Below are positions 15,329 to 37,743 of a DNA stretch of 64,000 bases, in pieces. Source of the stretch: Planctomycetota bacterium (GTDB lineage: Bacteria; Planctomycetota; UBA8108; SXIK01); contig OZ244999.1 of assembly GCA_965223265.1 (NCBI GenBank), positions 1,408,001 to 1,472,000 of the forward strand, in the 5' to 3' direction. How positions within the stretch are numbered: the first letter of the stretch is position 1; every line of letters starts with the position of its first letter. Position numbers and translations under genes: made by a program. The notes below the pieces were generated by a model, which did no database searches, was not told the origin of the DNA, and worked only from the letters and a program-made list of their open reading frames with translations.

Positions 15329-16789
15329 CTATACCCGGCGCTTCAGAAGTTCCCCGACGACGCGTCCCGGTTGACCGTCGATCAGTGACTGCTCACGACC
15401 GTTTCTCTTATACACCAGCTGCTTCGGGTCGAGGCCGAAGAGATGCATGAGCGTGTAGTGGTAGTCGGTGTGCGTGACGACATCTTCTGTTGAATAGTGG
15501 CCGAACTCGTCGGTCGCGCCGTGAATGTAGCCGGCGCGGAATCCGCCGCCGGCCACCCACATGCTGAAACCGTAGGTGTTGTGGTCGCGTCCGAAGTTTT
15601 TCACTCCGGCGTCGTTTTGGATGACCGGTAGGCGCCCCATCTCGCCGCCCCAGTGAACAATCGTCGTCTCGAGGAGGCCGCGATTCTTGAGATCCTTCAC
15701 CAGTGCCGCCGCCGGCTTGTCGGTCTTGGCGCACGCCTGCGGCAGCCCCGTAGCGATGCGGCCGTGGTGATCCCACAGTTGATAGCGCGTGAAGATCTGG
15801 ATGAAGCGGACGCCGCGCTCGATCAGCCGCCTCGCGATCAGGCAGCGAGTGCCGTACTCCGCGGTCACTGGATCGTCGAGGCCGTAGAGCGCTTTTGTGG
15901 CTACGGTTTCGCCGCGCAGGTCGAGCGCCTCGGTGGCGGCAGTCTGCATGCGCGCCGCGAGTTCATAGCTTTGGACGCGTGCCTCCAGATCAAGCTCTCC
16001 TGGGCGCGCTGCAAGATGGCGCCGGTTCAGTCGCTCCAAGTAGCTGAGGTAGCGACGCTGCGCTGCGCCGCGGAGGTGCTGGGGCGTCTCGAGGTTCCAA
16101 ATGCGAGGTTCTGCCGAGCGCACCACCGTGCCCTGATAGAGGGAGGGCAGCCAACCGTTCGACCAGTTGTTGACGCCTTCGACGGGCAGACTGTGGGGGT
16201 CGGTGAGGGCGACGTATGCCGGAAGATCTTCCGACTCGGATCCTAGACCGTAAGTGAGCCAGCTCCCGAGCGCTGGACGGCCGCGCTGAATCTTTCCGGT
16301 GTTGAGCGCAATGATCGACTGGTTGTGATTATTCACCCCTGTGTGCATCGAGCGAATGAGCGTGATGTCATCCGCGATCTCGCCGGTGTGCGGCAGCAGC
16401 TCTGAGAGTTCCATGCCGCACTCACCGTGATGTGAGAATTTCCACGGGCTGCCGAGCACGCGAGAGCTCGCCTGCGCGGCGTTGTCGTACTTGATCTTTC
16501 CAGGAAAGGTCTTGAGGTGGTACCTGTTGAGCAAAGGCTTTGGATCCGTCAGATCCATGTGGCTGGGACCGCCTTGCATGAAGAGCGAGATCATCGCCTT
16601 CGCCTGCGGTTCCCGGTGCGGCGCCTTTGGCTTGAGGTCAAACGTCCGCTTTTGCAGATCGGGCTTGATCTCTTCCGCCACCAGCCCGTCGCGCTCCAGC
16701 AGCCACGCCAGCGCTACCGACCCGATGCCCAGTGCGCTGCTGGCGAGGAAGTGGCGGCGTCCGCCGAGTTGATCTGCGGCTAAAACCAT
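15329..16789 (-). CDS. DUF1501 family protein (Tat signal)
   Basis: RRHFL, LFMQGGPSHMD, LIERGVRFIQ, WDHH, GEMGRLP, GRDHN motifs. Confidence 0.92.
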   Translation of the reverse strand: MVLAADQLGGRRHFLASSALGIGSVALAWLLERDGLVAEEIKPDLQKRTFDLKPKAPHREPQAKAMISLFMQGGPSHMDLTDPKPLLNRYHLKTFPGKIKYDNAAQASSRVLGSPWKFSHHGECGMELSELLPHTGEIADDITLIRSMHTGVNNHNQSIIALNTGKIQRGRPALGSWLTYGLGSESEDLPAYVALTDPHSLPVEGVNNWSNGWLPSLYQGTVVRSAEPRIWNLETPQHLRGAAQRRYLSYLERLNRRHLAARPGELDLEARVQSYELAARMQTAATEALDLRGETVATKALYGLDDPVTAEYGTRCLIARRLIERGVRFIQIFTRYQLWDHHGRIATGLPQACAKTDKPAAALVKDLKNRGLLETTIVHWGGEMGRLPVIQNDAGVKNFGRDHNTYGFSMWVAGGGFRAGYIHGATDEFGHYSTEDVVTHTDYHYTLMHLFGLDPKQLVYKRNGREQSLIDGQPGRVVGELLKRRV

Positions 16790-16854
16790 CGTTTCACTTT
16801 CGAAGACTCTGAAGGGGTGTCAATCGACCGTCGAGTGACGGCATTTCGAGGGCG

Positions 16855-19578
16855 TCAATCAACGTACAGAAACTCATTGGAACTCATCAAGGTCTGACAG
16901 AAGCTGGCGAGTGCGTAGAACTCTGGTGGTCGATCCGTCGGGTCTTTCTTTTTGTCGCTCTTCGTCTTCTCGGCGCCGGCTCGTTGCACGCGGAAGTGCT
17001 CGGTCTGCTCGGACATAAACTCGAGCGTTTCGTCGAGCTCGTCGTTCGTAGGCGTGCGCGCGAACGCCAGTTCCCAACCGCGCCGAATCTGCGCGGCGAC
17101 GTCGTTCGGTGCCTCCGCCCGGAGACGCGCGGCGAAGGTCTCGGACTGGGCGATAGCGAAGTCGCTGTTCATGAGCAGGAGCGACTGCGGCGCCACCGTC
17201 GACGAATTGCGTGCTTCGCAATTAGGTTCCATTCGCGGTGCGTCGAATGTGCGCAGGACGCTGAGCGGTCGGCTGCGACGCACTTGGATGTAGATACTGC
17301 GCCGGAACTGCTCCCCCTGCAAATCGGTCTCGGGGTCCAGCTCGCCACCGCGGCCACCTGTTCCAATCACGAACTGCCCCGACGTGTTCACGGTCACGGG
17401 AACCGGCGGCCCGAACAGCTTGCGGTTGAGCTTGCCGCTCAGGGCCAGAATGGCATCGCGGAGTGTCTCGGCTTCCAGGCGGCGGATCGATTTGTGCCAG
17501 TAGAGACGGTTCTCCGGGTCAATCGTATTGCCTACGGCTCGGCGCACCGCGAGCGGCTGAGAGGATTGGCGATACACCGAAGACGTCATGATCAGCCGGT
17601 GAAGGTGTTTCAGGCTCCAGCCGCTGTCGACGAACTCGCTGGCGAGCCAGTCGAGTAAAGCAGGGTGCGTCGGCGGTGCGCCCAGGACTCCGAAGTCAGC
17701 TGGGGTTTCGACGAGCCCGCGACCGAAGTGGTGGAGCCACACGCGATTGACGAGAACACGCGCGACGAGCGGATGGTCGCCACTCGTGAGCCAAGTGGCG
17801 TACGCCAGCCGGCGTCCGGTGCTTGAGACGGCGGGGTCGTTGACCGGAAGCTCGAGTTTGTCGTCGCGCAGCACTGAGAGCTCTGCGGGCGCGACCGCGT
17901 CGCGCGGTTGGGTGTGATCGCCGCGCGCGAAAACGCGCGTCTCCGGGATTTCGCCGGGGTTCTCGGTCAGCGCGCGAAGGAACTTCTCTGCTGGCTTGGT
18001 GCTTGCGGCCTTAGTGATCTCGGCTTGCAGCTTTTTTAGCTCATCAGCGGCCTTGCGGTCGTAGAGGTAGAGCGTGCCGTTGTTCACTTTCAGGCTCGGG
18101 TAGACGCGAAAGATCTCCTGCTGCTCTGGCGTGCGTTTGCCCTCCGGAGTCTTCCAGGCTACACGCGCTGCGGCGCGCAACGCGGCGGGAACTTTCTCGA
18201 GCTGCTTGTTGAAGGTGATTTCGATGAGTTCTCGACGCCGCTCTTCGAAGCGCCGACGCAGCGGCGCAACACTCTCCTTTTCGATTTTCTCCGCTTGGAG
18301 ACGATCGGCCGCGGTGTAAAGCGAGACGCGACGAGCAGCGGGATTGCGCCACTTCACTGGATTGTAGGCCGGTTCGAAGATGGCGCGGAAGCTGTAGTAG
18401 TCGCCCTGAGGGATCGGGTCGTAGCGGTGGTTGTGGCACTGTGCACAACCGACCGAGAGGCCGAGAAGGGAGGTGGACACAATTTTGATGGTGTCGGCGA
18501 CGACCTTGTTGCGCGCCAGATTCTGATCGACGCCTCCGGACCCCGTGCCATCGGGGGCCATGCGCAGGAAGCCGGTGGCTGTCAGTCGATCGATCTCGTC
18601 TGCCGTCAGATCGCGGTAGGGTGGCGTCACCATCTCATCGCCGGCGAGTTGTTCGCGGATGAAACGATCCCACGGCATATCCTCGTTGAGCGCGCGGATG
18701 ACATAATCGCGGTAGTGGTACGCCCACGGACGCTCGCGATCTTCGTTCGTGTAGCCTTCCGAATCGGCGTAGCCCGCGACGTCGAGCCAGTGGCGGCCCC
18801 AACGCTCGCCGTAGTGAGGAGAATCGAGCAGGCGGTCGATCAGCCGAGAGTACGCTCCCGGTGACGTGTCAACCATGAACGCCTCGACCTCCGACGGCGT
18901 CGGCGGCAGGCCCAAGAGATCGAAGAAAGCGCGCCGCACCAAGACCGTTTTCGTCGCCGCCGGTGCGAACGCAAGGTCGCTTTGCTCGAGCCGCGCGTGG
19001 ACGAACGCGTCGATCGGCGTTCGGACACGATCCGAATCGTCGACAGCCGGGAGCGTCGGGCGCTCGATCGGTTGGAACGACCAAAAGCGTCTTTCTTCGG
19101 AAGTGATTTGGAGATCCGGCGTGAGCTCGGTTGGCTCGGGGCGAAGCGTCTTGGCGCCGGTTTTGATCCAGCGAGCGAGTAGGCGAACGCTCTCCGGCGG
19201 TAGCTTCTTCTCACCCGGCGGCATTTCGCCGTCGCGCGCACGAACGTAGAGCAGGCTCCGTTCAGGATCTCCGGGAACCACGGCTGGGCCCGAGTCCCCG
19301 CCGCTCATAATCAGACGCCGCAAACGGAGGTCCAGGTTGCCTTCTACCTCTTCCTCCTCGCCGTGGCAGTGAAAACAGTTCGCTTTGAAAATCGGGCGAA
19401 CATGCTTTTCGAAGGAGAGCTGCTCGTCCGCGCGGGCCGACTCTCCGGCGCGCGAACTGGCTGCGATGAGAGTACAAACAGCTGCGGCGATCAACGACGA
19501 CGGCCAGCGTCGGTTCGGCAGAAGGCGCGGACGGCGCCAAGGCAATCTCGTTGCGTGGGCGGCCAGGTGACTCGTCAT
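16855..19578 (-). CDS. Planctomycete cytochrome c / PSD1 protein (PSCyt1-DUF1549-DUF1553)
   Basis: CFHCH and CAQCH heme motifs, YGERWGRHWLD, PTHPALLDWLA, SNEFLYVD; upstream partner of DUF1501. Start uncertain. Confidence 0.92.
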   Translation of the reverse strand: MTSHLAAHATRLPWRRPRLLPNRRWPSSLIAAAVCTLIAASSRAGESARADEQLSFEKHVRPIFKANCFHCHGEEEEVEGNLDLRLRRLIMSGGDSGPAVVPGDPERSLLYVRARDGEMPPGEKKLPPESVRLLARWIKTGAKTLRPEPTELTPDLQITSEERRFWSFQPIERPTLPAVDDSDRVRTPIDAFVHARLEQSDLAFAPAATKTVLVRRAFFDLLGLPPTPSEVEAFMVDTSPGAYSRLIDRLLDSPHYGERWGRHWLDVAGYADSEGYTNEDRERPWAYHYRDYVIRALNEDMPWDRFIREQLAGDEMVTPPYRDLTADEIDRLTATGFLRMAPDGTGSGGVDQNLARNKVVADTIKIVSTSLLGLSVGCAQCHNHRYDPIPQGDYYSFRAIFEPAYNPVKWRNPAARRVSLYTAADRLQAEKIEKESVAPLRRRFEERRRELIEITFNKQLEKVPAALRAAARVAWKTPEGKRTPEQQEIFRVYPSLKVNNGTLYLYDRKAADELKKLQAEITKAASTKPAEKFLRALTENPGEIPETRVFARGDHTQPRDAVAPAELSVLRDDKLELPVNDPAVSSTGRRLAYATWLTSGDHPLVARVLVNRVWLHHFGRGLVETPADFGVLGAPPTHPALLDWLASEFVDSGWSLKHLHRLIMTSSVYRQSSQPLAVRRAVGNTIDPENRLYWHKSIRRLEAETLRDAILALSGKLNRKLFGPPVPVTVNTSGQFVIGTGGRGGELDPETDLQGEQFRRSIYIQVRRSRPLSVLRTFDAPRMEPNCEARNSSTVAPQSLLLMNSDFAIAQSETFAARLRAEAPNDVAAQIRRGWELAFARTPTNDELDETLEFMSEQTEHFRVQRAGAEKTKSDKKKDPTDRPPEFYALASFCQTLMSSNEFLYVD

Positions 19579-20006
19579 AGTGGACGATTGTCGATGACCG
19601 CATGAGCGTGTGCAAGCTGTGTTTGAGCTTGTCGCATTCCGTATCGCAGTACGCGGCGGCGGTGATCTGTCGGCGGGGGGAAGATCTGCTGCGTCCTCTG
19701 AGCAGGGGCTTCTACGATGGACGATCTTTGCGGAAATCGTTGCAAGAAAGCGCGCAGCGCGTCGTCCATTCGGTCGAACGGCGGTGCTTTCCACGCGAGG
19801 GGGAGGGGCGCTAGATTCGGCGATCTGCGTTCGATCAGTTGCGGTGTGCGATCGTCCAGCTCTGAGCTGAGTGTGCGCCGAGAGGTCTGCCGGACGTGTC
19901 CACGGGATCTGATTTCTACGTGGCTTTGGTGTGACGTGAACGATACGATGAACTTCGCGTTTGCCGGGCCTGAACGGGTAAATGGAGTGCTTTGGAGGGC
20001 CTTGCG

Positions 20007-24534: not shown

Positions 24535-26394
24535 ATGCCATTTCGCGGTAAGAGAGTTGCCTACGCCACGGCTACCGCCGGCGTTCTCATCGTCATTCTT
24601 GGCGCCGTGTTCTATCGTTCTTTCTTGGTGGAGTCGTACTCTCTTTGGAGGTTGCGCTCAAGCGACACGGAAGCTAGGGACGCTGCGGTTGAGAGGTTGG
24701 CGCGGGTCGGTACTGAGAGATCTCTCTCCGGGCTGTGGCAGGCTTTGGCTGACTCGGTTGAATCCTCTCGCGACGCGACGTTAGCACAGAAAATAGTCGG
24801 CGCTTTGAGTTCCGTTGAGGCTCGCGTTCGTACGAGGCCAGGCACGGTCCTTCTGCGGTGCTTTTGGCGTACCGACGAGCCGCTGAAGCGTCGATCGGCG
24901 GTTGTCCGTTTTTTGATGGAGTCCATGCCGGAAGCTCTCGCGCCGGTGATCGGCGCGATGATCGAGCACGTTCATGGCGCTGCTCACACCGAAGAGTATC
25001 GCACCCCATCGTCAGCGGAGCTTCGCTACAGGCGCAGACTCAACGAATTGCCGCGCGACGACGCGTTTCAGTACTCCTGCTCGGCACTGCATGACTCGGA
25101 AGACATCGCTACCATTGCAGCAGTGCTAAAGGACCTGAGAGAGGTGTCGCGATCTTTGGGGAAGGCGCCAGTAGCATTGAGACATGTCGAGCGCTTTCTT
25201 GCCGAAGAACCTTTGGCTTCCGCTGCCTATCAGGATGCATTTCTGACGAAAGCCTTTCTGCTGGACCCAACCCCTTCGAATTCCGATTTGTTTCGCGCTG
25301 CGCATTCGAAAGGGTGGAAGACGTATGGCGAAAAGGATCCTCTCTACGCCTACAAAAGAGCCTTGTTCAAGCATGATCCCGCGCAATTCCCTTCGACCTT
25401 TCTGAACCTCTCGTTGGAGGACAAGAGTGGAGAGATCTACCGAAACGTCGGGGACTATCTGACCATGTTCGCCTGCCGGCGCCTTTGGCCGGAGCGTACC
25501 CGGGCACCAGAGTTCTCAGCTATGGCGAACATCCTTCCGAGGCTAGAAGTCGAGAGTGCTACGTTGCCGGCACGACTCGCGCGGGCGATATGCTTGCTTC
25601 TTGACCGCCGCTATGGCGAGTCTCTCTCGATTCTCGAGGAGATCGAGGCCTCGCTCTCCGCATCTCGTGCGGCAAAGGAATCCGACAGGTTCGAGGACGA
25701 CGAATGGCGCAACTTGCCGCTGTATGTTGCCGCCGTTCAGCTCCTGAAGGGGGCGTCGAAGCCAGAGGTGCAGGCGCCGCTTGCGGAGTTCGCGGATCGA
25801 AATCGTCGCCGTCCGGACTTTGTCGCCCAACGGGCCATGCGGATCAGTTCGACCATCTACCGTCAGCAAGGGCACGGAGTGGACTTTCCCGTGACGAGTT
25901 TCCTCGTCGAGAGGTTTCTCACCGACGAGAGTTTCGTCCGTCAGGTGCGCAAAAGGTATCTTTGGCACGTCGTTGACGTCTTTGTCACGAGTTCTCCTTT
26001 CTCCGGTCAAGCGAAGTACCTCATCCGCAAAGACAGCACGGATTCCATAGACCCGTCGAATCACCCAGGGCGATTCGACAATCTCTTCGTAGCTGCATAC
26101 AACTACATGTTGTACCAGGCGGGGAACGACCAGAGGGGGCGAGGCGATTTGGAGCTTGCAGAGGCCACTTTCCGTCGCATGTTGGAGTTCAATCGATCTG
26201 GTAGGTGGAACCGCGTTGCACGCGCCGAGCTGGTACAAACACTGATTGCAAGTGATCGCCCGGTAGATGAAATCCTGCCGCTAACCGAACGATTGGTGGG
26301 CTACGGTCTATCCGACGAGGGATGGGAGATGCTTCTCGAGCGAGCCGCACTAATGTTTCAGAGGTATCAACAGTCCCGATCGCCGACGAGATAG
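24535..26394 (+). CDS. Membrane-anchored helical-repeat (HEAT/TPR-like) hypothetical protein
   Basis: N-terminal TM, RDAAVERLARVG HEAT-like repeat, TPR-like C-terminus. Confidence 0.7.
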   Translation: MPFRGKRVAYATATAGVLIVILGAVFYRSFLVESYSLWRLRSSDTEARDAAVERLARVGTERSLSGLWQALADSVESSRDATLAQKIVGALSSVEARVRTRPGTVLLRCFWRTDEPLKRRSAVVRFLMESMPEALAPVIGAMIEHVHGAAHTEEYRTPSSAELRYRRRLNELPRDDAFQYSCSALHDSEDIATIAAVLKDLREVSRSLGKAPVALRHVERFLAEEPLASAAYQDAFLTKAFLLDPTPSNSDLFRAAHSKGWKTYGEKDPLYAYKRALFKHDPAQFPSTFLNLSLEDKSGEIYRNVGDYLTMFACRRLWPERTRAPEFSAMANILPRLEVESATLPARLARAICLLLDRRYGESLSILEEIEASLSASRAAKESDRFEDDEWRNLPLYVAAVQLLKGASKPEVQAPLAEFADRNRRRPDFVAQRAMRISSTIYRQQGHGVDFPVTSFLVERFLTDESFVRQVRKRYLWHVVDVFVTSSPFSGQAKYLIRKDSTDSIDPSNHPGRFDNLFVAAYNYMLYQAGNDQRGRGDLELAEATFRRMLEFNRSGRWNRVARAELVQTLIASDRPVDEILPLTERLVGYGLSDEGWEMLLERAALMFQRYQQSRSPTR

Positions 26395-26486: not shown

Positions 26487-27020
26487 ATGCGCGAGAACCA
26501 CGAGCGCGAGCAGTACTTCTTTGACGCACCGACGCTGGCACATCTGACCGCGTTCGTCTCGAAGTTCGCGGCGCCGTGTTGTGTCTGCGCGCCGTTTCTA
26601 GGTCGTCGTCTCTCTGAGGAAGGAGTCTCCGTCACGATTCTTGACATCGACGAGCGCTTCGCCGACCTGCCAGGATTCATGCGGTACGATATCCGCAAAC
26701 CTGTGTGGCTCGATCAAACGTTCGATCTCATCGTGTGCGATCCGCCGTTTTTCGACGTTTCCCTCTCCCAGCTTTTCTCAGCCCTGCGCACAGTGAGCCA
26801 CAATGATTTTCGGCAGCCTCTTCTCATCAGCTACCTGACGCGCCGTGAGTCCGCCCTTCTTGGCATCTTCGCGCCGTTTTCGCTGCGTAGTACCGGCTAC
26901 CGCCCGAAGTACGAGACGGTTCGCGATGATCCGAAGAATGAGATAGAGTTCTATGGCAACTTGGACGTATCCGATTCCGAGAGGCTTGCGGGGCGCATTG
27001 ACGGAAAAACCATGCCATGA
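26487..27020 (+). CDS. SAM-dependent methyltransferase of the N6-adenineMlase (EEF1AKMT1/N6AMT2/Efm5-like) family
   Basis: EQYFF, CCVCAP, LDIDERF, RYD-x-x-x-P, FDLIVCDPPF, NEIEFYGN follow the family motif order. Start ATG 26487. Confidence 0.8.
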   Translation: MRENHEREQYFFDAPTLAHLTAFVSKFAAPCCVCAPFLGRRLSEEGVSVTILDIDERFADLPGFMRYDIRKPVWLDQTFDLIVCDPPFFDVSLSQLFSALRTVSHNDFRQPLLISYLTRRESALLGIFAPFSLRSTGYRPKYETVRDDPKNEIEFYGNLDVSDSERLAGRIDGKTMP

Positions 27021-27084: not shown

Positions 27085-28722
27085 GTGTCTGAAACGACGA
27101 CAAGGAAGCCCACAAAAGTAGCAACGTGGAGCCGACTCCAGGACCGCGAGCCCGCCTACGCGCTGGTTGCTGATGTCGACTTGGTTGTCATTCGGTTCGA
27201 CGACGAAGTCTCGGTGCTCTTTGGGCGCTGTCTCCATCGCGGCGCGCTTCTCTCCGACGGATACGTCGATGGCGACAATCTGTTCTGCGGTGTGCATGCA
27301 TGGGACTATCGTGTCGACACCGGCGTGAGCGAATACAACAACGCCGAAGCGCTGCAGAGGTTTGACGCATGGATCGACGCCGGCGCCGACTCAGTGTTCG
27401 TCGACGAAAACGACGTGCGCAGATGGGCGAAGGAGCATCCTCAGCCGTACCGGCGTGACGAATATCTAGGGCTTTACCAGGACGTTCACGGTACCGAGGA
27501 GGAGCCTCAGAACAAATACATCCAGCGCCTCGCGCGGGAGGGACTGAGCAAGCTCGGGCATCATGGACCCACGAGTGCGATGGGAGTCGCTCAGACGGAG
27601 TTGCCTCGGTGGGATCAGATTCAAATCCTCACGGCACAGCTCGCGCGTAAGCCACTCCAGGACGACGTCGTTGTTGGCACAAAGTTGGTCATCGGGCCGC
27701 GTGCCAAGAAGCCCCTTGAGCTGCAGATTCCTCTCTTCGTCAGCGACATGAGCTTTGGCGCCTTGAGCGAAGAGGCGAAGGTGGCGTTGGCGCGAGGAGC
27801 CGAGTTCGCCGGCACCGGCATCTGTTCCGGTGAGGGAGGCATGCTGCCCGACGAGCAGGCTGCCAATAGCCGTTACTTCTACGAGCTCGCTTCGGGACGT
27901 TTTGGCTGGTCACTCGACAAGGTGGCGAAGTGTCAAGCCTTTCACTTCAAGTCTGGCCAAGGTGCGAAGACTGGAACAGGTGGGCACCTGCCCGCAAGCA
28001 AAGTGATCGGCCGTATCGCTGAAGTGCGAGGACTTCCGGAGGGCCAGGCGGCGGTGAGCCCGCCGACGTTTGTGGATCTGAACGCGCCTGACGATTACCG
28101 GCGTGTCGCCGATGAAGTGCGCGAGGCAACCGGCGGCATTCCAGTCGGTTTCAAGATGTCCGCCCAGCACATCGAAAAGGACATCGACTTCGCACTCGCT
28201 GCCTCAGCTGACTACATCATCCTCGATGGCCGCGGTGGTGGTACCGGCGCTGCCCCCGACATCTTCAAGAACAATATCTCGGTGCCGACGATGGCCGCCA
28301 TCGCTCGCGCCCGGCGACACCTCGATGCGGTTGGCGCCGCCGCGGTGACGCTGATCGCGACCGGTGGCTTGCGAACGGACGCCGACTTCGTCAAGGCGAT
28401 GGCCTTGGGCGCGGACGGTGTCGCGGTCTCGAACAGCGCCCTTCAGGCCATCGGCTGTCTCGGAATGCGTGCCTGCAACACGAACAACTGCCCGGTCGGC
28501 ATCGCGACCCAAAAGTCAGAGCTGCGAGCGCGATTCGTGGTCGAAAAGTCTGCCGAGCGATTGAAGAATTTTTTTGACGCCACCACTGCTCTCATGTGCG
28601 TGCTCGCTCGCGCCTGCGGCCATGATCACCTTTCGAGTCTTAACCCTAGCGACTTGACGACGTTCGATCGCGACCTAGCCGCGCTGACAGGCGTTCGATA
28701 CGGGGGAGTCGTAGCGCCGTGA
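27085..28722 (+). CDS. Rieske [2Fe-2S] + FMN-dependent glutamate synthase-like protein
   Basis: AAGGAGGT RBS + GTG; CLH...CGVH (Rieske); MSFGALS, SGEGG, QGAKTGTGG, DGRGGGTGAAP, CLGMRACNTNNCPVG (Fe-S). Confidence 0.92.
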   Translation: MSETTTRKPTKVATWSRLQDREPAYALVADVDLVVIRFDDEVSVLFGRCLHRGALLSDGYVDGDNLFCGVHAWDYRVDTGVSEYNNAEALQRFDAWIDAGADSVFVDENDVRRWAKEHPQPYRRDEYLGLYQDVHGTEEEPQNKYIQRLAREGLSKLGHHGPTSAMGVAQTELPRWDQIQILTAQLARKPLQDDVVVGTKLVIGPRAKKPLELQIPLFVSDMSFGALSEEAKVALARGAEFAGTGICSGEGGMLPDEQAANSRYFYELASGRFGWSLDKVAKCQAFHFKSGQGAKTGTGGHLPASKVIGRIAEVRGLPEGQAAVSPPTFVDLNAPDDYRRVADEVREATGGIPVGFKMSAQHIEKDIDFALAASADYIILDGRGGGTGAAPDIFKNNISVPTMAAIARARRHLDAVGAAAVTLIATGGLRTDADFVKAMALGADGVAVSNSALQAIGCLGMRACNTNNCPVGIATQKSELRARFVVEKSAERLKNFFDATTALMCVLARACGHDHLSSLNPSDLTTFDRDLAALTGVRYGGVVAP

Positions 28723-29022: not shown

Positions 29023-30576
29023 TCAGAACCCGGAGAGTCGAACTTCCGGAGCGCTCGAGTCGCCAGAGCCGACGTAGCGCGCGTAGCGAGCCTGAATCGG
29101 AGCGAAGTTGAACGTCTCCGCCAAGTTGCCACCTTGCTGTTCGCTCAACACCGCCGTCCAGTTCGTTCCGTCGCTGGAAACCTCGAGATCGAAGGCAGCT
29201 TCGCCTTGTGACGCCCAGCCGAACGTCACCTGGCTGATCGTACGGACGCTGCCGAGGTCGACTTCGAGTTGCATTAGGACGATCGGGAGCTCGGTGATGG
29301 TCGGTTCTGGATCAGGAGGCGCGGTGTCGAGCTCGTGACCTACGACTCGCATCTCGGTGAGACTGTTCCAGCGGCTCTTGGAATTGCCAAAGCCAACGTA
29401 GCGTACGTAACGCGCTTCGATCGGAGCGAAATCGAAGGACTCGAAGCCCGTGGTCGCACCACTGCTGCGTCCGTCGGAGAGCACGCGCGTCCATTCGCTG
29501 CCGTCACCTGAGGCCTCGAGTGCGAAGAGCGCCAGTCGTTGATTGCCCTTGTAAAAGGCCAGCTTGACTTGGCTGACCAAGTGAACGTCGCCGAGGTCGA
29601 GTTCGAGCCACTGGCCGTCGCCAAGCGCGGACCAGCGTGTGCCGAAGTTGTCGTCGAGCACGTTCTCGGGGCCGTTTCCATCATCGCTGCTGGCTCGGAC
29701 GTCGACAGTTGCCAGCTCGCCCGCCGGCGATGTCCCGCCGCCGTCCGTCGTCCCGCCGCCGTCCGTCGTCCCGCCGCCGTCGTCGGTCGTTTCCTCTCCA
29801 CCGTCCGTCGTGTCGCCCCCAGGGTCAGGCGGATTCACGACGTCGCCCAAACGCCCGAGAACCTGCATCTCCGTGACACTATTCCAGCCACTCACGGAGT
29901 TGCCGTAACCGACGTAACGAATGTAACGAGCTGAGACGGGACCAAAGGCAAACGATTCGAATGCTGTCGTCGTGCCGCTGCTGCTTTGATCCCCGAGGAC
30001 CGACACCCACTGAGTCCCGTCGGTGGAAGCTTCGAGTGCGAAGAACGCCTGGCGCTCGTCGCCTTTGGCCCAGGCGAGATCGACTTGAGCGACAATGTAA
30101 TCACCGCCGAGGTCAAGCTCGAGCCATTCACCGTCTCCGAGCGCAGACCAGCGAGTGCTGAGATCGCCGTCAAGCACGTTCGCCGGGACGTTGCCGTCAT
30201 CGCTGCTCGCTTGGACTTCGGCGATCTGAATTGGAGCCAACCCGGCCGCCGCCGACACTTCTTCGGAAAAGTCGCTTTCCGTACCGTCGGACGCCAAGGC
30301 CGTGACCGAAAAAAAGTAGATCTCTCCCTCGACGAGACCCTCGACGGTCGCCGTGGTTGCTGTGTCTTCTACATTGGTTGAGTGATCGTAGGCGAAGTGC
30401 TCTGGGTGGTTCGCGGTGCCTCGACTCCCCTGGCCATAGTGAACCACGTATCCGGAGGACCCTGTAGATGGCGGGTTCCACACCAGGTTCACCTGGGCTG
30501 CTTCAGTAGTCGCGGCAAGTGACGTGATACCGACAAGAAACACGGTTGCACGAAGGAGTCGATTTTGAGTGCGCAT
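29023..30576 (-). CDS. Secreted Fn3 + discoidin (F5/8 type C, CBM32-like) repeat protein
   Basis: Signal peptide from MRTQNR; Fn3 (LVWNPP...YFFSVTA...ESDFS); two full DG-x-x-x-TRWS...WLELDLG domains and a third truncated one. Confidence 0.85.
   Translation of the reverse strand: MRTQNRLLRATVFLVGITSLAATTEAAQVNLVWNPPSTGSSGYVVHYGQGSRGTANHPEHFAYDHSTNVEDTATTATVEGLVEGEIYFFSVTALASDGTESDFSEEVSAAAGLAPIQIAEVQASSDDGNVPANVLDGDLSTRWSALGDGEWLELDLGGDYIVAQVDLAWAKGDERQAFFALEASTDGTQWVSVLGDQSSSGTTTAFESFAFGPVSARYIRYVGYGNSVSGWNSVTEMQVLGRLGDVVNPPDPGGDTTDGGEETTDDGGGTTDGGGTTDGGGTSPAGELATVDVRASSDDGNGPENVLDDNFGTRWSALGDGQWLELDLGDVHLVSQVKLAFYKGNQRLALFALEASGDGSEWTRVLSDGRSSGATTGFESFDFAPIEARYVRYVGFGNSKSRWNSLTEMRVVGHELDTAPPDPEPTITELPIVLMQLEVDLGSVRTISQVTFGWASQGEAAFDLEVSSDGTNWTAVLSEQQGGNLAETFNFAPIQARYARYVGSGDSSAPEVRLSGF
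29732..29781. repeat. 18-bp coding tandem repeat (about 2.8 copies) encoding a TTDGGG linker
   Basis: GTCCCGCCGCCGTCCGTC twice plus a partial copy. Confidence 0.9.
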
Positions 30577-30831
30577 GTAAAGGATCCTCGCTTCGTTGAT
30601 CACCTGGTCGAGCTGCGCCTGTTGCCACTTGATCGGAACGTGAGGACGACGTGGCAACCTGTGTGCCTGGGCCTGTTTTTTTGCCGCAGGTGTGTTCAAA
30701 TGTTCGACTTGGGGCGTATGACTGCGCGTCCAGGAAAGTGAGGACGAACTCTCTCAGTTCCGATTCTTACCGTCCTCTCTACCGAAAACGACGCGCATAG
30801 GATTTGGCGTTGTGTCACGGAGTTGGCTTAG

Positions 30832-34652: not shown

Positions 34653-35948
34653 TCAAGCCCGCCGCTGAGTACGCTTCGCGGGGCGCCTCTTCTTAGTGGA
34701 CGGTGCGTGGCGCCGCACCGATTCGCTGTCGCTTCCACACAGCGTACCGAGTGTTACCTCGGGTGACTCTCCACCCTCATCGTGTTTTAGATAGACGAAC
34801 ACATCTTTCTTCGCCTTTTGCAGCTCTACGAACCATGTACGCCAAGAAGTGAGGTCAGCGTCGTCGTATCCGTCACGACGCAGGCGTACGTAAGCGAACT
34901 CAGACGTTGTCAAGCGCGGCATCGAGAGCTTCTCGTCGTCGTGGACGACCAGCGCTACCTGACCGTCAGAGAGACACGCCCACGTCGCATCGTCGAACCA
35001 GCTCTCATGGCGGAACTCGATCGCGTATCGAATTCCTGACGGCAAGCAGGCGACGAAGTCGGCAAGGAGCGCGTCATCACGCTTTAAAGTTGGAGGCAGC
35101 TGAAAAAGGATCGACCCAAGACGTTCGCCAAGGGTTTCGCACCGCTCCACGAAGCTGGCGGTTACGTCCTCGACGTTTTTTAGTCGTGACCTATGCGTGA
35201 TGCGTTGGTTCGCCTTGACCGCGAAAAGAAAACCGTCCGGAGTCTGCGCCGCCCAGTCCGCCAGCGCTTTCTCGGAAGGGAAACGATAGAACGTGTTATT
35301 GATCTCGACGGTATCAAAGCGTGTCGAGTAGTAGGAGAGAAAGTCGCCGACGGCGAGGTCTTCGGGGTAGAAAGACCCCTTCCACTCCTTATACGAATAG
35401 CCCGAGGTTCCCGGACGCAGGCGGCCGGAGGAGGCCGGTAGCGGCGCTGGCACCGTAGATGATTTCGAACGCACCGATGGAGCGAACTTGCGGCCGCTTT
35501 TGCGGCGTTCGATCGAAGCAAGAATTCGCTCCTCGGTTTTTTTGCCGAAGCCGCGGAGTTCGCTGACGCGTCCGGCGCGAGCGGCAGCTTCGAGCGCAGC
35601 GAGACTGTCGACGTCGAGTTCGGTCCACAGCGCTCGGACCTTCTTGGGGCCGATCCCCGAGAGCGTGAGCAACTCGGGTAGGCCTTCCGGGACCAAGCCG
35701 CGGATGCGTTCGTGCTCACCCGATCTTCCGCTCCGGACGAGCTCGCTGATGATGCTCGTCAGTCCTTTGCCAGTTCCCCTTAGACTGCTGAGCGAACCGT
35801 CCTCAACGGCGGCGGCGAGATCTCCTTCCCACTCGTCGAGGCTGCGACCGGCGTTGCGGTACGCCATGATCTCGAAGGTGTTCGCCTCGGCAATCTCGAG
35901 AAGGTCTCCCATCTCCTTGAGGGTCCGGATGACTTCGTCCTTGTTCAC
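34653..35948 (-). CDS. Fusion of DNA polymerase X N-terminal HhH domains with DUF72
   Basis: GGAGG RBS + GTG 35948; DLLEI...NTFEIMAYRNA, GIGPKK, GFGKKTEERIL (PolX N-term); GTSGYSY, VEINNTFY, LFQLPP, AIEFRHESW, YVRLR, VYLKH (DUF72). Confidence 0.88.
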   Translation of the reverse strand: MNKDEVIRTLKEMGDLLEIAEANTFEIMAYRNAGRSLDEWEGDLAAAVEDGSLSSLRGTGKGLTSIISELVRSGRSGEHERIRGLVPEGLPELLTLSGIGPKKVRALWTELDVDSLAALEAAARAGRVSELRGFGKKTEERILASIERRKSGRKFAPSVRSKSSTVPAPLPASSGRLRPGTSGYSYKEWKGSFYPEDLAVGDFLSYYSTRFDTVEINNTFYRFPSEKALADWAAQTPDGFLFAVKANQRITHRSRLKNVEDVTASFVERCETLGERLGSILFQLPPTLKRDDALLADFVACLPSGIRYAIEFRHESWFDDATWACLSDGQVALVVHDDEKLSMPRLTTSEFAYVRLRRDGYDDADLTSWRTWFVELQKAKKDVFVYLKHDEGGESPEVTLGTLCGSDSESVRRHAPSTKKRRPAKRTQRRA

Positions 35949-36234
35949 CTTTCGAGTCCTCCGTGCGGCGAGACCGTGATGCAGCGCGTCGCGGAATTGG
36001 TCGTGTGTATCGAACGACGAAGCGCGCCGAGCGGTTTGTCCTGTGACAACAATTCGGACAAACAGATCCCTCCAAGTGTGCCAGTGGTGGGGTGATTTTC
36101 CCAGCCTGCGGATGTTTTCGGATGGCGCATGGCGCCGCGTTAAGCGCTGATCGAGTGCAGAGGGGGCAAAGCACAGCCTGTTCGATGCGCCACTCTGCCG
36201 CTGCGAGTGATCAAGAGCGCGCAACAGGTGCGCG

Positions 36235-37743
36235 CTATTCGTCGTACCAGTACGAAAACAGACTGCCTCGAGAGAGCGCAAAGCGCAGGCTGACCTGCTG
36301 GCCCTCGTGCGCAGCCGACCGATCCTTTGTCCACTTCACAGGCGCTCGGTGGAGATCGCCGCTCAGCGGCTCGGATCTGACGACGACTGAGCCGGCAACC
36401 AGCACCTCCACGCGCAGGTGGCCGCGTACGATAGCGTTGACGCGCAGCGTTCCACCCGGCGAGAGGAACGGCTTCGTCTCGACGACGCCCTCCACGTTAG
36501 TCGCGTCGAGCGACACGAATCCATCGCGTCGTAGCACGGCCAAACAGACGGCGCCGGCTTTTTCGTCTGCGTTCTCAGGTCGCGCGCGATACTTGATCCC
36601 CGTGTAGTAAAACCAAAGTTCGTCGCCACGCTCCACTGGTGCGCTCGGGCCAATCAGTTGCGTTAGGTCATAGGCGCCTTCGCCCACGGGCGAAGGTCCG
36701 ATGAATGTGCCCCGATTGCCAAGGCGAGTGAACGTCTTGAGATCCCGACTACACACCAGCTGGATCAAGTGAAAGCCGTCCTTGTTCCAACGATTGTCAT
36801 TGGAGTGGAACATCGCGGGAGTGCCGATGTAGAGACCTTCGTAACGAAACAGCCCCATGTTGTAGACGTCGACTTTGGGTTTGGCGGTTTTTCCCTTGTA
36901 CGTGTCGCGAATGTCCCACAGCGGTCGCTGCATTTGTAGTTTGGAGTTGGCGCGACGTGCCTCGATGTGTCGCCGGCCAAGCTCCTGGTCGAGCTCGTCG
37001 GCGTGAAAGATCATGGTCGGCTCGGTCCAATTCTCGAAATCCTTGCTGGTCGAAAGGTGCACGGAGCGGCCGTAGGGTCCGGGATGCTTGACCGTCAGAA
37101 TGAACAAGCGCTCTCGATGATCCAGCGAAAGATTGGACTCGTCTTGGCTAGGAATGGGAGGAACATCGAGCAGCTCCCATCGCACGCCATCCGCGCTCAC
37201 CATGGGACGGCGCCCGAAGGCACCGAGGAGGCCCTTGTAGCGCCGCCCGGGATCGGGATCGAACGGGTCGTAGACGACGTTCTCGATGGCGTTTTCCGGC
37301 CACTGCATTTTCGGGTCGAGCGCGATGAAGTTGTTTTCCCGCGAGCCCTGTAGCTCCCACTGCAGGAGCGTGGGCTTCGTCCACTGCACGCCATCGGCAC
37401 TTGTGGCGAAGGTGGCGCCCGCGACTCCTGGCAGATTCGTGGAGGTGATCAGCCAGAGCTTGAAGACGTTTTCTTTCACCTCCCACGCAGGGACGCATCG
37501 CGTCTGCAGCGATGTCTCCCATGGCTTGTCTGGGAGGACAACCGCACCTCTCTTCGTCGGCTGATGCAGAGTCCTCACCAGGTCACGCATGCCAGCGAGG
37601 CCCATGTCGTCGAGAAAGAGCTGGCGCTCGCCGGGCACGACCACGAACTCTGGTTCAGCGGCGCCGGCAGTGCACGGCAACGACAGTGTCAGGAGGCAAT
37701 GCAACAGCAACAGAGCTGGCAGCGGGGCATCAGCGGGACGCAT
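36235..37743 (-). CDS. Secreted five-bladed beta-propeller glycoside-hydrolase-like protein (paralogue of 4596..6128)
   Basis: RQLFLDD, SADGVQW, DPDPGRRYKG, LWFYYTG, LRRDGFVSL, LFSYW. Confidence 0.78.
   Translation of the reverse strand: MRPADAPLPALLLLHCLLTLSLPCTAGAAEPEFVVVPGERQLFLDDMGLAGMRDLVRTLHQPTKRGAVVLPDKPWETSLQTRCVPAWEVKENVFKLWLITSTNLPGVAGATFATSADGVQWTKPTLLQWELQGSRENNFIALDPKMQWPENAIENVVYDPFDPDPGRRYKGLLGAFGRRPMVSADGVRWELLDVPPIPSQDESNLSLDHRERLFILTVKHPGPYGRSVHLSTSKDFENWTEPTMIFHADELDQELGRRHIEARRANSKLQMQRPLWDIRDTYKGKTAKPKVDVYNMGLFRYEGLYIGTPAMFHSNDNRWNKDGFHLIQLVCSRDLKTFTRLGNRGTFIGPSPVGEGAYDLTQLIGPSAPVERGDELWFYYTGIKYRARPENADEKAGAVCLAVLRRDGFVSLDATNVEGVVETKPFLSPGGTLRVNAIVRGHLRVEVLVAGSVVVRSEPLSGDLHRAPVKWTKDRSAAHEGQQVSLRFALSRGSLFSYWYDE

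Follow-up and report, generated by a model that had tools for sequence, protein, structure and literature searches.

A PF10237 methyltransferase gene of a Planctomycetota bacterium and the association of its bacterial relatives with RNA-repair genes

The gene considered here lies in a 64,000-nucleotide stretch of DNA (the window, as the whole stretch is called from here on) from a Planctomycetota bacterium, corresponding to positions 1,408,001 to 1,472,000 of contig OZ244999.1 (assembly GCA_965223265.1). The open reading frame (ORF) at window positions 26487-27020 is a real gene and a true member of the family PF10237 (N6-adenineMlase). Its sequence and a structural model predict a stand-alone S-adenosylmethionine (SAM)-dependent N-methyltransferase with a seven-β-strand fold and a DPPF motif. 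The relatives of this protein in bacteria and in phage-like contigs are often tied to RNA-repair gene clusters, as revealed by gene neighbourhoods (20 of 94 loci), protein fusions, and co-occurrence. The reading that we favour, to which we assign a probability of about 0.55, is that the protein is an RNA-repair-associated methyltransferase acting on RNA, on which it would methylate a base nitrogen of broken or re-ligated tRNA or rRNA. An RNA substrate is preferred because the protein carries an N-transfer motif, its closest solved structure is that of an rRNA N6-methyladenosine (m6A) enzyme, and every recurrent partner acts on RNA ends.

Association of the relatives with RNA-repair genes

Gene neighbourhoods were compared in 94 loci holding a methyltransferase gene of this kind: the window, eight loci from genomes of the phylum, five IMG/VR contigs, and 80 metagenome contigs (the best 80 of 162 confirmed). 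The analysis consisted of clustering of the neighbouring ORFs and Pfam scans, followed by tblastn with one RtcB and one RtcA. The Pfam scans identified RtcB (PF01139) upstream and RtcA (PF01137) downstream of the methyltransferase, and in the tblastn comparison 16 of the 94 loci had RtcB, RtcA or both as its immediate neighbours. The same-strand order rtcB-methyltransferase-rtcA, with short gaps, is found in five loci (L019, L090, L098, L099 and L116). Two Rtc-linked loci come from the phylum of the window, in genomes G154 (L016) and G239 (L019), and the RtcA-linked copy of L016 has in common with the window protein all the residues that are invariant in the clade.

Other RNA-repair functions appear in the same position in viral contigs. 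The next gene downstream of the methyltransferase in three IMG/VR contigs encodes PF18143, the HAD domain of the "Swiss Army Knife" (SAK) RNA-repair proteins, a family that has been described as an RNA-end phosphatase of jumbo phages (PMC7824862). A fourth IMG/VR contig encodes a PF09414 RNA ligase and a PF13521 P-loop protein immediately upstream of the methyltransferase. Overall, an RNA-repair neighbour is present in 20 of the 94 loci, a share that may in truth be higher because flanks of at least 600 nt on both sides are available in only 51 of them. Queries with Tpt1, RNA ligase and AAA_28 against the 94 loci found no copies beyond those of the source loci.

In a tree of 91 distinct methyltransferase sequences (L049, L105 and L044 were left out, as their matched segment is identical to that of another locus), the Rtc-linked copies are distributed over at least three subclades, with at least nine label changes. 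One group of 20 rows gathers 12 of the 16 Rtc-linked copies together with two SAK-linked viral copies; the copy of the window lies elsewhere in the tree.

Translational fusions link the family to the same kind of functions. The 360-aa protein P0125 joins a PF10237 domain (residues 7-161) to a Tpt1/KptA RNA 2'-phosphotransferase domain (PF01885, residues 179-341), and P0149 joins PF10237 to the N-terminal part of RTC. Bacterial KptA is not known to have a physiological substrate.

The third line of evidence is co-occurrence within the phylum. All nine genomes that carry PF10237 above the cut-off also encode RtcA, versus 190 of 401 genomes overall (one-sided Fisher test, p = 0.0011, with no correction for kinship or genome size; both counts appear to come from the same draw of 401 genomes of the phylum).

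Two further observations concern the surroundings of the relatives. Downstream of the methyltransferase-rtcA pair of one locus (L073:7382-8962) there is a gene for a NadR-like protein of 526 aa, which has a PF13521 P-loop domain and a weak similarity to cytidylyltransferases, a possible sign of NAD metabolism in the vicinity of RNA repair. Two large IMG/VR contigs carry genes of the IS605 OrfB/TnpB type (Cas12f-like TNB; L041:6521-7690 and L042:9114-10361) within 3 kb of the methyltransferase.

Family membership and predicted fold

PF10237 has been characterised in eukaryotes. Human eEF1A-KMT1 (EEF1AKMT1, also called N6AMT2) and yeast Efm5, both members of the family, are reported to trimethylate Lys-79 of eEF1A (PMC10238732, PMC11514484). 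N6AMT2 is in turn described as the human methyltransferase most similar to ZCCHC4, the 28S rRNA m6A4220 enzyme, which also uses a DPPF motif (PMC6954407) and whose methyltransferase part has been termed the N6-adenineMlase domain (PMC9296561). In Phytophthora, the PF10237 proteins DAMT1-3, with DPPY or DPPF motifs, are reported to affect N6-methyladenine (6mA) in DNA (PMC6211444).

The window protein scores 62 bits for PF10237 (E 7.4e-17), where the cut-off is 23.2, a match well beyond what chance would give, and its residues 3-158 cover positions 1-163 of the 166 of the profile. The second Pfam match, to Cons_hypoth95 (the RsmD family), is below threshold (E 0.33, 11 bits versus 24) and restricted to residues 76-102, around the DPPF motif, on which grounds an RsmD-type N2-methylguanosine methyltransferase was rejected. 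No DNA-methylase family of Pfam matches the protein at E<=10, and an NCBIfam scan returned nothing meaningful. When the single protein was searched against the sequences of the PDB, there was no match below E 0.3, while a profile search retrieved ZCCHC4 as a weak match (E 0.018) spanning the QY.F and LDID.R motifs.

An AlphaFold (AF2) model of the protein, built on 28 sequences, reached a mean confidence (pLDDT) of 91.4. The top Foldseek match of this model is also ZCCHC4 (6uca, E 3.3e-8). Structural alignment with VIA-align gives 6uca_A a Z score of 17.8, with a root-mean-square deviation of 3.3 over 167 residues (chain residues 165-377) and 20% identity, and the next entry has a Z score of 13.0. 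TrmM (7wm6) is a weak match, in sequence and fold, around the DPPF motif.

These results agree with the first-pass annotation, which had been made from the sequence of the window and had proposed both membership in the EEF1AKMT1/Efm5 family and a kinship with ZCCHC4. The former is borne out by the PF10237 score, and the latter by the ranking of ZCCHC4 as the best structural match and of N6AMT2 as its nearest human methyltransferase (PMC6954407). That annotation had also named the finding that would speak against it, namely best matches to ordinary DNA adenine or RsmD-type methyltransferases. This is not what was found, because the best structural neighbour is ZCCHC4 rather than an enzyme of either type.

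The gene, its start and its conserved motifs

The features of the gene, all on the + strand, are the following.

26487-27020, +: coding sequence of the PF10237 methyltransferase, 177 aa, stop codon included (translation; Pfam 62 bits, profile 1-163/166; homologue N-termini agree)
26508-26522, +: EQYFF, residues 8-12, signature of the family at the N terminus, before the Rossmann fold (E8, Q9, Y10 and F11 invariant in 28 clade members)
26577-26603, +: CCVCAPFLG, residues 31-39, motif I region in place of GxGxG (C34, P36 and G39 clade-invariant)
26640-26660, +: LDIDERF, residues 52-58, acidic end of strand 2 (L52, D53, D55, R57 and F58 clade-invariant)
26739-26750, +: DPPF catalytic motif, residues 85-88, motif IV / Post II (identified from the sequence; clade-invariant)
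26841-26846, +: Arg119-Arg120 pair (both columns invariant in the bacterial clade, kept in part only by the eukaryote-type groups)

Translation of this interval is uninterrupted and ends at a stop codon. An alternative upstream ATG at 26322 would give an ORF of 232 aa, which overlaps the 619-aa ORF that ends at 26394. The longer form was rejected because of this overlap and because 20 of 27 aligned homologues start at the residue aligned with the Met encoded at 26487, which is therefore the best start; the remaining seven are extended at the N terminus by between 1 and 74 residues. The homologues also keep the N-terminal pattern M-x-E-x-H-x-x-EQYFF. The protein is acidic, with an isoelectric point (pI) of 5.24, and the median among 110 close relatives of 160-185 aa is 5.7.

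The protein of 177 aa with a DPPF motif and without GxGxG that had been described at first is thus confirmed by translation, and every motif that had been listed for it is present (EQYFF at residues 8-12, CCVCAP at 31-36, LDIDERF at 52-58, RYD, FDLIVCDPPF and NEIEFYGN). Across 21 sequences spanning three groups of the family, the invariant residues are Q9, P36, D53, D55, F58, and D85-P86-P87. In the N-terminal signature, whose alignment partner in ZCCHC4 is NAQYLF, E8 and F11 are nearly as conserved as Q9 across the bacterial and eukaryote-type groups. In the model, CCVCAPFLG is located at a strand (30-33) and a helix (36-44). LDIDERF, whose counterpart in ZCCHC4 is LDIDFRY, is expected to contact the ribose of SAM. 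As for the DPPF motif, the mutation D276A in that of ZCCHC4 has been reported to abolish its activity, and the same source restates the established view that a (D/N)PP(F/Y) motif denotes transfer to an exocyclic or side-chain nitrogen (PMC6954407).

Distribution of the bacterial clade

A word-indexed protein search retrieved 280 clusters at E<=1e-3. Among the matches listed there are 119 relatives that are 55-67% identical to the window protein and about 165-245 aa long, all of them with PF10237. Few are named: they appear as "hypothetical protein" or, at the Joint Genome Institute (JGI), as "putative N6-adenine methyltransferase", and they come from metagenome-assembled genomes of Myxococcales and Planctomycetes. 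A profile search of 1.84 billion cluster representatives yielded 569 proteins at E<=1e-3, of which 88 also passed E<=1e-30, and a search for longer forms retrieved one relative of 403 aa that has PF10237 as its sole domain.

A tree was built with the window protein and 88 of 150 listed representatives, the other 62 having been left out for being shorter than 150 aa or longer than 400 aa, lacking a [DNSE]PP[FYWH] motif, or being truncated around it. The window protein falls into a group of 46 rows of compact sequences of roughly 170 aa. Separate groups are formed by 17 rows that include a nematode protein and by 22 rows that resemble a green-algal cluster; no named EEF1AKMT1, Efm5 or ZCCHC4 sequence is part of this tree.

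The clade is sparse in the phylum of the host. PF10237 was detected in ten genomes of the sample of 401, nine of them above the cut-off, and in three of 41 relatives, while no control genome exceeded the cut-off. The host genome, a single contig of 9.18 Mb, holds one copy, and a six-frame search returned the same single locus. Outside the phylum, the family occurs in Myxococcales, as judged from source names, and in Chloroflexota, Cyanobacteriota and some Uroviricota, as judged from the taxa of the Atlas clusters. A tblastn search against 50,697 phage records gave no match to the methyltransferase, and the one match among 72,556 plasmid records lies on a 1-Mb replicon of Nostoc (33% identity).

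Surroundings of the gene in the window

The genes on either side of the methyltransferase serve as context only.

24535-26394, +: 619-aa ORF upstream, with no Pfam family (no match beside the methyltransferase gene in 93 other loci, tblastn)
27085-28722, +: 545-aa protein with a Rieske [2Fe-2S] domain (PF00355) and a glutamate-synthase FMN domain (PF01645) (not beside the methyltransferase in 93 other loci)

The second of these genes has a GTG start with a strong Shine-Dalgarno-like AAAGGAGG a few bases upstream. When 14 other proteins of the window were compared by tblastn with nine and then 93 other loci, no recurring neighbour appeared apart from one weak match of the GFO family. Between 24300 and 29000, a promoter scan found no promoter-like sites and a terminator scan found six terminator-like sites, versus 5.2 expected. 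The GC content across the methyltransferase gene (0.565-0.57) shows no anomaly with respect to the 0.53-0.645 observed nearby, and Rfam and tRNA scans detected no RNA genes in the window.

The RNA-repair genes of the host are found far from this region. The genome encodes one RtcA and three RtcB proteins; rtcA followed by rtcB lies at 4.81 Mb and the methyltransferase gene at 1.43 Mb, about 3.4 Mb apart. The RtcB/RtcA loci recorded (L126-L128) are G000:C1:2990566-2991873, 4811993-4813066 and 190228-191271, with one RtcB directly after RtcA.

Three other regions of the window deserve a mention. A DUF1501 gene adjoins a PSCyt1/PSCyt2/PSD1 gene on the - strand (15329-19794), a pair typical of Planctomycetes that fits the phylum assignment. 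Also on the - strand are encoded a 558-aa protein (29023-30699) with fn3 and three F5/8 type C (discoidin) domains, connected by a Gly/Thr/Asp repeat linker of the GGTTDGGG type, and a 542-aa protein (34653-36281) in which the helix-hairpin-helix domains HHH_8 and HHH_5 occur with DUF72, an unusual pairing.

Proposed function and substrate

According to the favoured reading, the clade would constitute an accessory "modifying" enzyme of RNA-repair systems. The methyltransferase may act together with the ligase RtcB, the 3'-phosphate cyclase RtcA, or analogous healing and sealing enzymes, and it would target an exocyclic amino group on a base of tRNA or rRNA that is broken or has been re-ligated. 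The N6 of adenine would be the most likely atom, as in ZCCHC4, with the N2 of guanine as another candidate. The methyl mark might block renewed cutting of the repaired RNA, as Hen1 does in the Pnkp/Hen1 system. Substrate class, methylated atom, and protective role are all points that we infer from the family and its partners.

We also advance, tentatively and with less conviction than the reading itself, a broader proposal. The clade could be a base-methylating counterpart of Hen1 for RtcB-type and phage repair, depositing an N6-methyl or other N-methyl mark on a nucleotide at or next to the site of a ribotoxin cut in tRNA or rRNA and in this way blocking re-cutting. ZCCHC4 and EEF1AKMT1 could then descend from such a methylase of conflict systems, later fixed for housekeeping in translation.

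Several observations weigh against an RNA-repair function of the window protein. Its own gene is solitary, outside any RNA-repair cluster and among unrelated neighbours. An RNA-repair neighbour was not seen in 74 of the 94 loci, and some of the unlinked loci (L012, L013, L015, L049 and L075) have flanks of 6 kb or more. The co-occurrence with RtcA rests on nine carriers, with phylogeny uncorrected. The protein has no RNA-binding domain and an acidic pI, which would be uncommon in an enzyme that binds RNA by itself, and for small stand-alone members of PF10237 the only activity with firm proof is protein-lysine methylation (PMC10238732, PMC11514484). Lastly, P0187, a nonribosomal peptide synthetase (NRPS) of 3673 aa with three C-A-PCP modules and a thioesterase, carries a C-terminal PF10237 domain (residues 3519-3672), suggesting a peptide or amine substrate for that member at least.

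An alternative is a protein-lysine or other protein N-methyltransferase similar to Efm5 and eEF1A-KMT1. It could modify a translation factor, for instance EF-Tu at a different lysine, a ribosomal protein of basic character, or a repair enzyme, for instance RtcB itself. In that case the genes would be linked to RNA repair because the enzyme modifies one of the proteins of translation or of repair. A basic protein substrate would suit the acidic clade, devoid of nucleic-acid-binding domains, and the NRPS fusion suggests a peptide amine as acceptor. EF-Tu had been offered as an example of such a substrate, but the site homologous to that of eEF1A does not sustain it. In yeast, K79 is methylated within the peptide GITIDIALWKFETPK, residues 70-84 of eEF1A (PMC4482628, Table 3), while the same ungapped stretch of the host EF-Tu, GITINTAHVEYET, has Glu at this position. 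All seven carrier and all eight non-carrier EF-Tu sequences that reach this position likewise have Glu, as does that of the sub-threshold genome G296. Judging from these alignments, methylation of EF-Tu at the position equivalent to eEF1A Lys-79 is excluded because Glu occupies the target, leaving other lysines of EF-Tu as candidates. One of them is reference position 159, which is Lys in five of eight carriers versus none of nine non-carriers, a weak signal at a variable site. A complex prediction for the host EF-Tu and the methyltransferase gave a score of 0.00, which, having been obtained without controls, counts neither way.

The sole Lys at the K79-equivalent site belongs to a divergent EF-Tu-like paralogue of genome G154 (L040, G154:C750:2059-3219), which is 58% identical to the host EF-Tu and reads GITINTSHVKYES. 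G154 is one of the genomes in which the methyltransferase abuts rtcA; it is split into 1330 contigs and 84% complete, so that contamination is possible for this gene.

A protein substrate is further disfavoured by the neighbourhood and fusion partners, which act on RNA ends (RtcB, RtcA, SAK-HAD, RNA ligase and Tpt1/KptA), and by the position of the window protein in the tree, among compact bacterial sequences and outside the two groups with eukaryote-type members. We regard this alternative as unlikely, though Efm5 and eEF1A-KMT1, the characterised small enzymes of PF10237, speak for it. Between the two options that the first-pass annotation had offered, a protein-lysine and an RNA methyltransferase, neighbourhoods and fusions thus favour RNA, and EF-Tu finds no support at the homologous site.

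The N-methylation of a small molecule, nucleotide or peptide (for instance, a natural-product amine or a nucleotide signal of RNA damage) would also be compatible with a small, acidic, single-domain protein. The PF10237 domain of P0187 lies C-terminal of a three-module NRPS, after the thioesterase, and the mid-ranking structural neighbours of the model include the small-molecule N- and O-methyltransferases ToxA, PigF and NodS. Nevertheless, there is no biosynthetic cluster around the gene in the window and none recurs in the other loci, where the recurrent neighbours are RNA-repair genes, and the NRPS fusion is a single cluster representative that may be an artefact of gene calling. This makes a small-molecule substrate improbable. 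Even less probable, to the point that we give it little weight, is an orphan DNA N6-adenine methyltransferase, as the name of the Pfam family, the JGI names of some relatives and the claim for the Phytophthora DAMT proteins would have it. The DPPF motif is indeed of the type found in DNA methyltransferases that act on exocyclic amino groups, but the catalytic fold fills the whole 177 aa and leaves no target-recognition domain, the protein is acidic, and it lacks a match to the DNA-methylase families. Phage and plasmid records yielded the single Nostoc match already mentioned, and the solved structures closest to the model are those of methyltransferases acting on RNA, small molecules and proteins, with no Dam-like enzyme among them. 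Pfam scans of the methyltransferase and of 14 ORFs between 13795 and 37776 detected no restriction-type gene, in accordance with the initial remark that neither a restriction gene nor a target-recognition domain was evident.

Significance

The substrates reported for PF10237 enzymes are surprisingly diverse, ranging from a lysine in eEF1A through an adenine in 28S rRNA to, possibly, DNA. N6AMT2 has been called "pan-eukaryotic" (PMC8885841), and a review surveys eukaryotes only (PMC10238732). The papers listed under the names PF10237 or N6-adenineMlase all deal with eukaryotes, none with bacteria. No paper was found that ties RtcB or RtcA to EEF1AKMT1, N6AMT2, Efm5 or ZCCHC4, in a search that required at least three such names and which papers with two of them would escape. 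An abstract by Burroughs and Aravind (Nucleic Acids Research, 2016) reportedly mentions "methylases", in general terms, for the protection of RNA termini.

The copy in the window is an ordinary-looking solitary gene, and the interest lies in the link of the family to RNA repair. The repeated presence of the bacterial clade in RtcB/RtcA operons, beside phage RNA-healing enzymes and fused to Tpt1/KptA, provides a concrete and testable function for uncharacterised proteins. If the reading is correct, it would add a new enzyme class to the RNA-repair systems, whose physiological substrates are still debated, and would offer an evolutionary origin for two eukaryotic methyltransferases of the translation apparatus.

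Comparison with known systems

Among the known systems, EEF1AKMT1 (N6AMT2) and Efm5 resemble the window protein in being small and stand-alone, in belonging to PF10237, which the window protein matches above the cut-off over nearly the full profile, and in having a DPP(F/Y) motif without GxGxG. The eukaryote-type members share with it Q9, P36, D53, D55, F58 and D85-P86-P87. However, the window protein sits apart in a compact bacterial clade, shares 26-37% identity with the sequences obtained from outside that clade, eukaryote-type ones included, and does not have the N-terminal extension of 40-90 residues of those groups. The substrate site also differs, given the Glu of bacterial EF-Tu at the K79 position, and so does the context, as it is the relatives of the window protein that are linked to RNA-repair genes.

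ZCCHC4 (human, PDB 6UCA) is the top structural match, has the same DPPF motif, and is retrieved weakly by profile (E 0.018). In contrast to the window protein, which is a bare catalytic domain of 177 aa, ZCCHC4 holds the rRNA by means of GRF, C2H2-like and CCHC zinc-finger modules. The Phytophthora DAMT1-3 proteins belong to the same Pfam family and carry DPPY or DPPF, but these proteins come from a eukaryote and the activity claimed for them is on DNA (PMC6211444), a substrate to which nothing in the context of the bacterial clade points. Enzymes of the RsmD/Cons_hypoth95 and TrmN6 types are similar as small Rossmann-fold N-methyltransferases that act on RNA bases through a DPPF-like motif, whereas the EQYFF and LDIDERF motifs of the window protein are specific to PF10237.

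The likeness to Hen1 of the Pnkp/Hen1 system is one of proposed role and of neighbourhood logic, in which a methyltransferase beside RNA end-healing and sealing enzymes marks the repaired RNA. Hen1 methylates the 2'-O position, has an RNA-binding region of its own, and partners an ATP-dependent ligase. The window protein, unlike Hen1, holds a DPPF motif of the N-methylation type and has PF10237 as the sole Pfam family above threshold, and the partners found in its relatives are mostly RtcB and RtcA.

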